64,000 bases of DNA from a virus. Its lineage: Duplodnaviria; Heunggongvirae; Uroviricota; Caudoviricetes. The stretch is from the IMG/VR virus record IMGVR_UViG_2974716081_000001. The stretch is one strand, 5' to 3'. The notes under the pieces are model-generated. The model did no database searches and was not told where the DNA came from. It saw nothing but the letters and a program-made list of their open reading frames with translations. Positions 37,258 to 37,791 of this stretch are shown here, one piece after another. The number at the start of each line of letters is the position of its first letter. The first letter of the stretch is position 1. The position numbers and the translations under genes are program-made.

Positions 37258-37791
37258 TCATTCAGGTTGTTCGGGAAATGTTACTGGCAGGCTGGAGGTG
37301 TCTGTAGATTCGACTTTCTGCGCATAGAGCATCCACTCAGTTAATTTTTGTTTATTCTCGTCGGAAATGATGCCCAGCCGTAGCTGTGAGTCCCATAGCT
37401 GGGTTTTATCCCTGACAAGTTGCAACAGGCTTTGTTTTTCATTCTCTGCCTGCTGCCTTTGTTCCTCCTCGGTATAAGTTCGCTTTATCACTACGCCATC
37501 TTTGAACATCTATTTACCCGAAATATCAGCCCGGCGATTTGCTGTAATATCAGGAACCTCAACGACGCTTGCGCCTTCTGGATTAATTGCTGAAACATCC
37601 TTTTCAATACAAATAATAACGTCGTTGTGGTCATAGACCATTTTCAACGTATCAGGCTGAAAGTTCTTTTGTTCCTCATACCAGTTTTTCCCATCCTCTG
37701 TATAAAGCCATTTGATGTTAAATTGTTTCGTTAGCTGGTATTGCTCTTTTGTTTTAGGGTTGCCAGCAGTAATGTTTTTTAAGTGCATCAT
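37258..37791 (-). pseudogene. U: tail-fibre assembly chaperone U interrupted by an in-frame TAG at codon 94 (Trp in U')
   Basis: two adjacent same-frame ORFs (93 aa, TAG, 83 aa); U' reads ...[11 protein letters not shown] where U reads ...DISGK*MFKDG; total 177 codons. Confidence 0.75.

Follow-up and report, generated by a model that had tools for sequence, protein, structure and literature searches.

A private amber codon in the U′-type tail-fibre assembly chaperone gene of bacteriophage P7

The question raised by this locus is why a tail-fibre assembly chaperone gene, located in one operon with its fibre gene, carries an in-frame amber codon. The gene occupies positions 37258-37791 on the minus strand of the 64-kb window (the whole stretch of 64,000 nucleotides that was analysed), and its translation reads 93 amino acids, a stop and 83 further amino acids in a single frame. 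The stop is a TAG at codon 94 (37510-37512, minus strand; CTA on the plus strand). It leaves an N-terminal ORF of 93 amino acids (37510-37791, minus strand) and a C-terminal ORF of 83 amino acids (37258-37509, minus strand), and the ATG of the latter at 37507-37509 abuts the amber codon in a TAG-ATG junction. A paralogous chaperone gene on the plus strand (36699-37229) is 58% identical to the interrupted one and has a Trp codon, TGG, at the aligned position.

The coordinates, the lengths of the two ORFs and the contrast between TAG and TGG had been put forward in an earlier note on this DNA, and all of them turned out to be exact upon retranslation and alignment of the paralogs. The other copy is indeed intact, as the same note had stated, and the interrupted gene immediately follows S in the present orientation: the chaperone begins with an ATG at 37791 and the S′ fibre gene ends on the same strand with its stop at 37794, which places the chaperone immediately behind its fibre gene in the same operon. 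A chance pattern of ORFs was ruled out, as the 534-nt gene equals the intact gene of the prophage RCS47 and about 20 plasmid copies except at one base.

Identity of the phage and orthology of the gene

The window is bacteriophage P7. In an exact-sequence look-up, the 93-aa product was found to be gpUa of Enterobacteria phage P7 (AAQ07588.1 / YP_009914509.1), and the 83-aa ORF was found to be AAQ07587.1, the accession adjoining gpUa. These products of GenBank AF503408 come from the same locus of the same genome, and both ORFs are identical to those of the window with no difference. Since gpUa and a second ORF were deposited for P7, the split gene is already part of the public annotation, and the interrupted chaperone is thus not a new observation. 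In the literature that was searched, the interruption of this P7 gene is not discussed.

Genes for a Tn3-family transposase, a resolvase and blaTEM are present at 2652-7421, in agreement with the blaTEM-1 Tn3 known from P7, formerly φAmp (PMC5786510). The Tn3 transposon (tnpA, resolvase, blaTEM) is the ampicillin-resistance hallmark of P7. It is adjoined by a restriction-modification pair at 8500-13376 (res, 8500-11412; a mod-like gene, 11415-13376), which is type III by its NCBIfam match; one paper describes the P7 system as type I. When the window is compared to its nearest relative, p.E166-P1 (NZ_CP032067.1), the first 13503 positions are mosaic: alignment is limited to 1-2621 and 7569-8424 (about 95% identity), and all else is specific to P7. 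Beyond 13.5 kb the two are 99.8% identical (99.79% over window 13503-64000). Ninety-one differences are clustered at 12-18 kb, and 16 SNPs are found within 18000-64000.

In the public record of P7 the pieces of the chaperone are named by position (U, split into Ua and Ub), whereas homology makes the gene U′. The protein encoded by the interrupted gene shows 94.9% identity with P1 U′ and only 58% with P1 U; for the intact paralog, identity with P1 U reaches 98.3%. Judged by these identities, the interrupted gene is to be regarded as the ortholog of P1/Mu U′ and not of U. The labels of the earlier note, in which the broken copy was U and the intact copy U′, were positional only and are reversed by homology. 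Its further statement, that particles with the S fibre may be defective and the inverted Sv′/U′ state works, needs correction: the damaged set is S′/U′, and S/U, the set that serves on laboratory E. coli, is intact. P1 gpU′ (YP_006500.1) and Mu U′ are both uninterrupted proteins of 177 amino acids, whereas the window gene, which is 95% identical to Mu U′ at the nucleotide level, has TAG at codon 94. In P1, in Mu and in the window, the gene follows Sv′ in a segment inverted by Cin or Gin and is convergent with U.

The C segment and its inversion switch

The invertible C segment (35354-39360, about 4.0 kb) is inverted relative to the P1 reference. Positions 36357-39371 of the window align in reverse orientation to the P1 C segment at the DNA level, so that the deposited P7 molecule can be assigned to the C(−) state, in which Sc is fused to Sv′. 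As expected of a host-range switch, the segment contains two convergent sets, Sv-U on the plus strand (35397-37229) and Sv′-U′ on the minus strand (37258-39360). Sv itself (35397-36698, plus strand), the ortholog of P1 Sv, corresponds to the C-terminal part of the K-12-type fibre; in the orientation shown it is silent and without the constant N-terminal part, and the U ortholog that follows it at 36699-37229 is detached from the late operon.

The fibre gene predicted to be expressed in this orientation (37794-40721, minus strand) consists of Sc and an Sv′-type variable part. Upstream of it are R, the first gene of the tail-fibre operon (40733-41167, minus strand), and the late promoter LPs with its −22 and −10 elements (41198-41216, minus strand), which drives R-S-U and is identical to P1 LPs in 19 of 19 positions. 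Sc, R and LPs are outside the C segment, at 39361-41216. A mechanically called S ORF reaches upstream as far as a TTG at 40808 and runs into R (window 40722-40808); judged by the 2928-nt S genes annotated in RCS47 and p.E166-P1, the true start is the ATG at 40721. Directly after the stop of the interrupted chaperone gene, in the gap that separates it from its convergent paralog, a G+C-rich hairpin with a T-run behind it (37235-37254, minus strand) probably terminates the R-S′-U′ late operon.

The gene for the invertase adjoins the segment, and inverted cix sites flank it. The serine DNA invertase Cin is full length (34789-35349, plus strand; 186 amino acids) and 98.4% identical to P1 Cin. The crossover sites cixL (35344-35363) and cixR (39351-39370) each match their P1 counterparts in 20 of 20 positions and sit in 198-nt inverted repeats (35343-35540 and 39174-39371) that bound the C segment. 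The inverted position of the segment with respect to the P1 reference is consistent with switching, and with the invertase and both cix sites intact nothing in the sequence stands in the way of a turn to S/U.

The nearest phage record is the P1-like prophage RCS47 (FO818745), whose C segment was deposited in the same S′-U′ orientation as that of the window. In RCS47 cin is broken and U′ is intact, whereas in the window cin is intact and U′ is broken. The cin gene of RCS47 is annotated as a two-part pseudogene (L001 8443-8983; FO818745 36607-37147), and this prophage appears to be locked through the loss of its invertase. In the inverted repeat adjoining cixR, positions 39273-39336 of the window contain four clustered differences from p.E166-P1, in all of which the window agrees with RCS47. 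The cluster resembles a short patch of recombination or gene conversion in E166 rather than point mutation.

Uniqueness and origin of the amber codon

The change from TGG to TAG is a private, single-base G→A change. Compared with U′ of RCS47, the sole difference in 534 nt is at base 281 of the gene, where the coding strand has A for G; this is window position 37511, T instead of C on the plus strand. Some 20 plasmids and complete E. coli genome records are 99.8% identical to the chaperone gene and none is 100% identical. The best matches in three annotated collections were likewise at 99.8%, with no match at 100% because P7 itself is absent from them. An exact-pattern scan of 185,579 species-representative genomes and of IMG/VR for a 46-mer spanning the TAG gave no match. 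The earlier note had considered that the same TAG might be present in all U genes of the P1 family, but this is not the case: every relative examined has TGG, and the TAG, being unique to this record, lacks the conservation among relatives expected of a read-through site. The intact 177-aa version is present on more than 1000 contigs. Trp94 is invariant in all 133 full-length homolog cluster representatives, and the U paralog and Mu U have Trp at this position as well. As the gene contains no second change, the nonsense mutation can be taken to be very recent.

Further carriers of the exact 93-aa product were examined and rejected: they are contig-end truncations after codon 93, one of which goes on with TG. 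The other contigs with a called 83-aa ORF all have TGG at codon 94 and are interrupted by contig ends, recombination junctions or other lesions. Several short-read assemblies (Logan contigs L017-L020) end at their 3′ side exactly after codon 93, and the likely cause is that the next stretch (…TGGATGTT.AA.GATGG…) is near-identical in the U and U′ paralogs. Such breaks give rise to spurious “exact 93-aa” proteins in databases and to an inflated UniRef count for gpUa.

The SNPs that separate the window from p.E166-P1 were polarised with the help of RCS47, pRHB26-C21_3 and P1. All nine polarisable SNPs that are private to the window (18170, 23580, 29939, 31657, 37511, 37965, 45271, 47753 and 50708), the amber included, are G:C→A:T changes; four are missense, one is nonsense, three are synonymous and one is intergenic. 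Polarisation failed for positions 24798 and 55216, which would not be G:C→A:T if derived in P7. Changes of this type account for roughly a third to a half of spontaneous changes. Even at a one-half baseline, nine of nine corresponds to p ≈ 0.002. The spectrum suggests hydroxylamine or alkylating mutagenesis, or else cytosine deamination in stored lysates of the sequenced stock. The mutation probably arose in the laboratory.

The same spectrum bears on the possibility that the TAG is a sequencing or editing error in the sole P7 record and that the true codon is TGG, with an uninterrupted U′-type chaperone gene in the phage. The stop is found in one public record only, a single P7 sequence has been deposited, and the difference is one base in a gene that is otherwise identical, all of which is what such an error would look like. 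However, the depositors retained the stop and annotated two products, gpUa and the adjacent 83-aa protein. Furthermore, the uniform G:C→A:T direction of all nine polarisable private differences is a coherent biological spectrum, unlike that of random base-calling errors, and points to real mutations rather than base-calling noise. We consider an error unlikely.

Consequences for the S′ fibre and for the use of P7

The window protein matches the Mu tail fibre assembly protein U (TfaMu, PDB 5YVQ chain B) over its full length with E = 1.2e-63. It has the same two-domain plan, but TfaMu is the U-type paralog of the G(+) state, whereas the window protein belongs to the U′ type and is interrupted between its domains. 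In Tfa chaperones, an N-terminal β-sandwich binds the fibre tip, and a conserved C-terminal helical domain is responsible for oligomerisation and assembly (PMC9608196). An AF2 model of an intact homolog with 97% identity (P0032) shows an α/β N-domain at about residues 1-80, a region of low confidence (84-101) and a helical hairpin predicted with confidence (108-162). As the model was built from a shallow alignment (mean pLDDT of 74.9, pTM of 0.42, 58.8-74.9 across the five models), it is used for the domain layout only, and this layout places codon 94 in the inter-domain linker.

Against the Pfam profile Caudo_TAP (PF02413), the repaired 177-aa protein scores 125.5 bits and the 83-aa ORF 88.5 bits, and the 93-aa fragment, with 20.5 bits, falls below the cut-off of 22.1 bits. 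The interrupted chaperone can thus be classed as a Caudo_TAP member by descent, but the TAG at codon 94 separates the predicted domains, and the single chain that would join them is lost. Because Trp94 is invariant and the stop is in the linker between the N-domain and the C-domain, the TAG is expected to cause a loss of chaperone function. In the C(−) state, LPs would transcribe R, the Sc+Sv′ fibre gene and the U′-type chaperone gene. In a non-suppressing host, translation would stop after 93 residues and leave only the N-terminal, fibre-binding domain. This truncated product would be without the C-terminal helical domain that drives fibre assembly, and correctly folded S′ fibres would be expected to be missing from C(−) virions.

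The premise of the earlier note that a fibre depends on its own chaperone of the Tfa type is in agreement with a genome-wide CRISPRi study of P1, in which U, S and R were essential and U′ and Sv′ were non-essential (PMC10695390). P1(S′) failed to transduce K-12 and B, which agrees with what had been reported before for K-12 and C; it did transduce S. flexneri 2a/5a and E. coli O3, and this depended on the O-antigen (bioRxiv 10.1101/2022.07.24.501295). Given that S′ is not used on K-12, B and C, and that U′ is dispensable for plaques on laboratory E. coli, the defect would be selectively invisible in ordinary laboratory propagation, where the S/U set, reached via Cin inversion, would carry the phage. 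If the S′ host range of P7 is taken over from P1, the U′ nonsense mutation would be neutral on laboratory hosts. A similar case is laboratory λ, the standard strain of which has lost its side tail fibres to a frameshift in stf (PMC10695390). Both are reference phages in which a point lesion has inactivated a host-range fibre function that is accessory and can be dispensed with on K-12. The λ lesion, however, is a frameshift in the fibre gene itself, whereas that of P7 is a nonsense mutation in the chaperone of one switchable fibre.

We are fairly confident in the following explanation: the deposited P7 is in the C(−) state and carries a recent, private TGG→TAG mutation at Trp94 of U′, a neutral passenger loss of function. 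The TAG most likely arose as such a passenger in the P7 stock or lineage.

It is improbable, somewhat more so than an error in the record, that the stop is bypassed or compensated and the S′ fibre is still assembled. Were it suppressed by supE or supF or otherwise read through, the Gln or Tyr inserted at an invariant Trp position may fail to restore function, and ARAGORN found no tRNA gene, and hence no suppressor tRNA, in the 64-kb window. Help from the U paralog is conceivable: cin, Sv and U are arranged in a row on the plus strand, so that U could be transcribed by read-through from cin, and the C-terminal ends of both fibres are similar (inverted repeat I3). Reinitiation could make use of the ATG immediately after the TAG; the cut is in a low-confidence linker between two separately folding domains, and the 83-aa ORF keeps nearly the whole Pfam-conserved part (88.5 bits). 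However, a strong Shine-Dalgarno sequence is absent before the ATG at 37507-37509, and the published mechanism requires that a single chain contain both the domain that binds the fibre and the domain that oligomerises (PMC9608196). That termination and reinitiation at the TAG-ATG junction would yield two polypeptides still capable of chaperoning the S′ fibre, in effect a naturally split Tfa, is in our estimation very improbable.

Independent in-frame stops are also present in U′-type genes of metagenome contigs, at codon 78 at an identical locus in two samples (L006/L007, 321-854) and, as a TAA, at codon 93 in a third contig (L011, 442-975). They hint that a split chaperone might recur, and they could mean either that the mutation predates laboratory handling or that a split gene is tolerated. 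This set, however, was selected by the look-up itself, in which any stop shortly upstream of Met95 yields the same 83-aa ORF, and it is silent on frequency.

The earlier note had further proposed a conditional-lethal marker or an adaptive “lock”. Such a marker, deliberately introduced or selected, or a lock favouring one fibre type has very little probability. The change of TGG to TAG through G→A is a classical product of amber mutagenesis with hydroxylamine or nitrosoguanidine, and the spectrum of private SNPs fits mutagen exposure. However, an amber marker is placed in a gene that is essential on the selective host, and U′, according to the data on its P1 ortholog, is non-essential for plaques on laboratory E. 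coli and offers no conditional-lethal phenotype to select (PMC10695390). Nor is anything locked: Cin, cixL, cixR and the late promoter are intact, the allele is found in one record only and is missing from hundreds of related elements, and the locked-looking relative RCS47 has its lesion in cin with U′ intact. The TAG is not a regulatory or adaptive device.

In the neutral-passenger explanation that we favour, the interrupted chaperone of P7 represents no new biology, and its meaning is mainly that of a caution: the reference P7 genome has a predicted defective chaperone for the alternative, S′-type fibre. The positional names U and U′ in P7 do not correspond to U and U′ of P1. The possible history of mutagenesis or deamination of the sequenced stock is relevant wherever P7 serves as a “wild-type” comparator for P1-like plasmids. 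For host-range work that uses P7 or its C segment toward O-antigen-bearing Shigella or E. coli, repair of codon 94 or supply of U′ in trans is advised.
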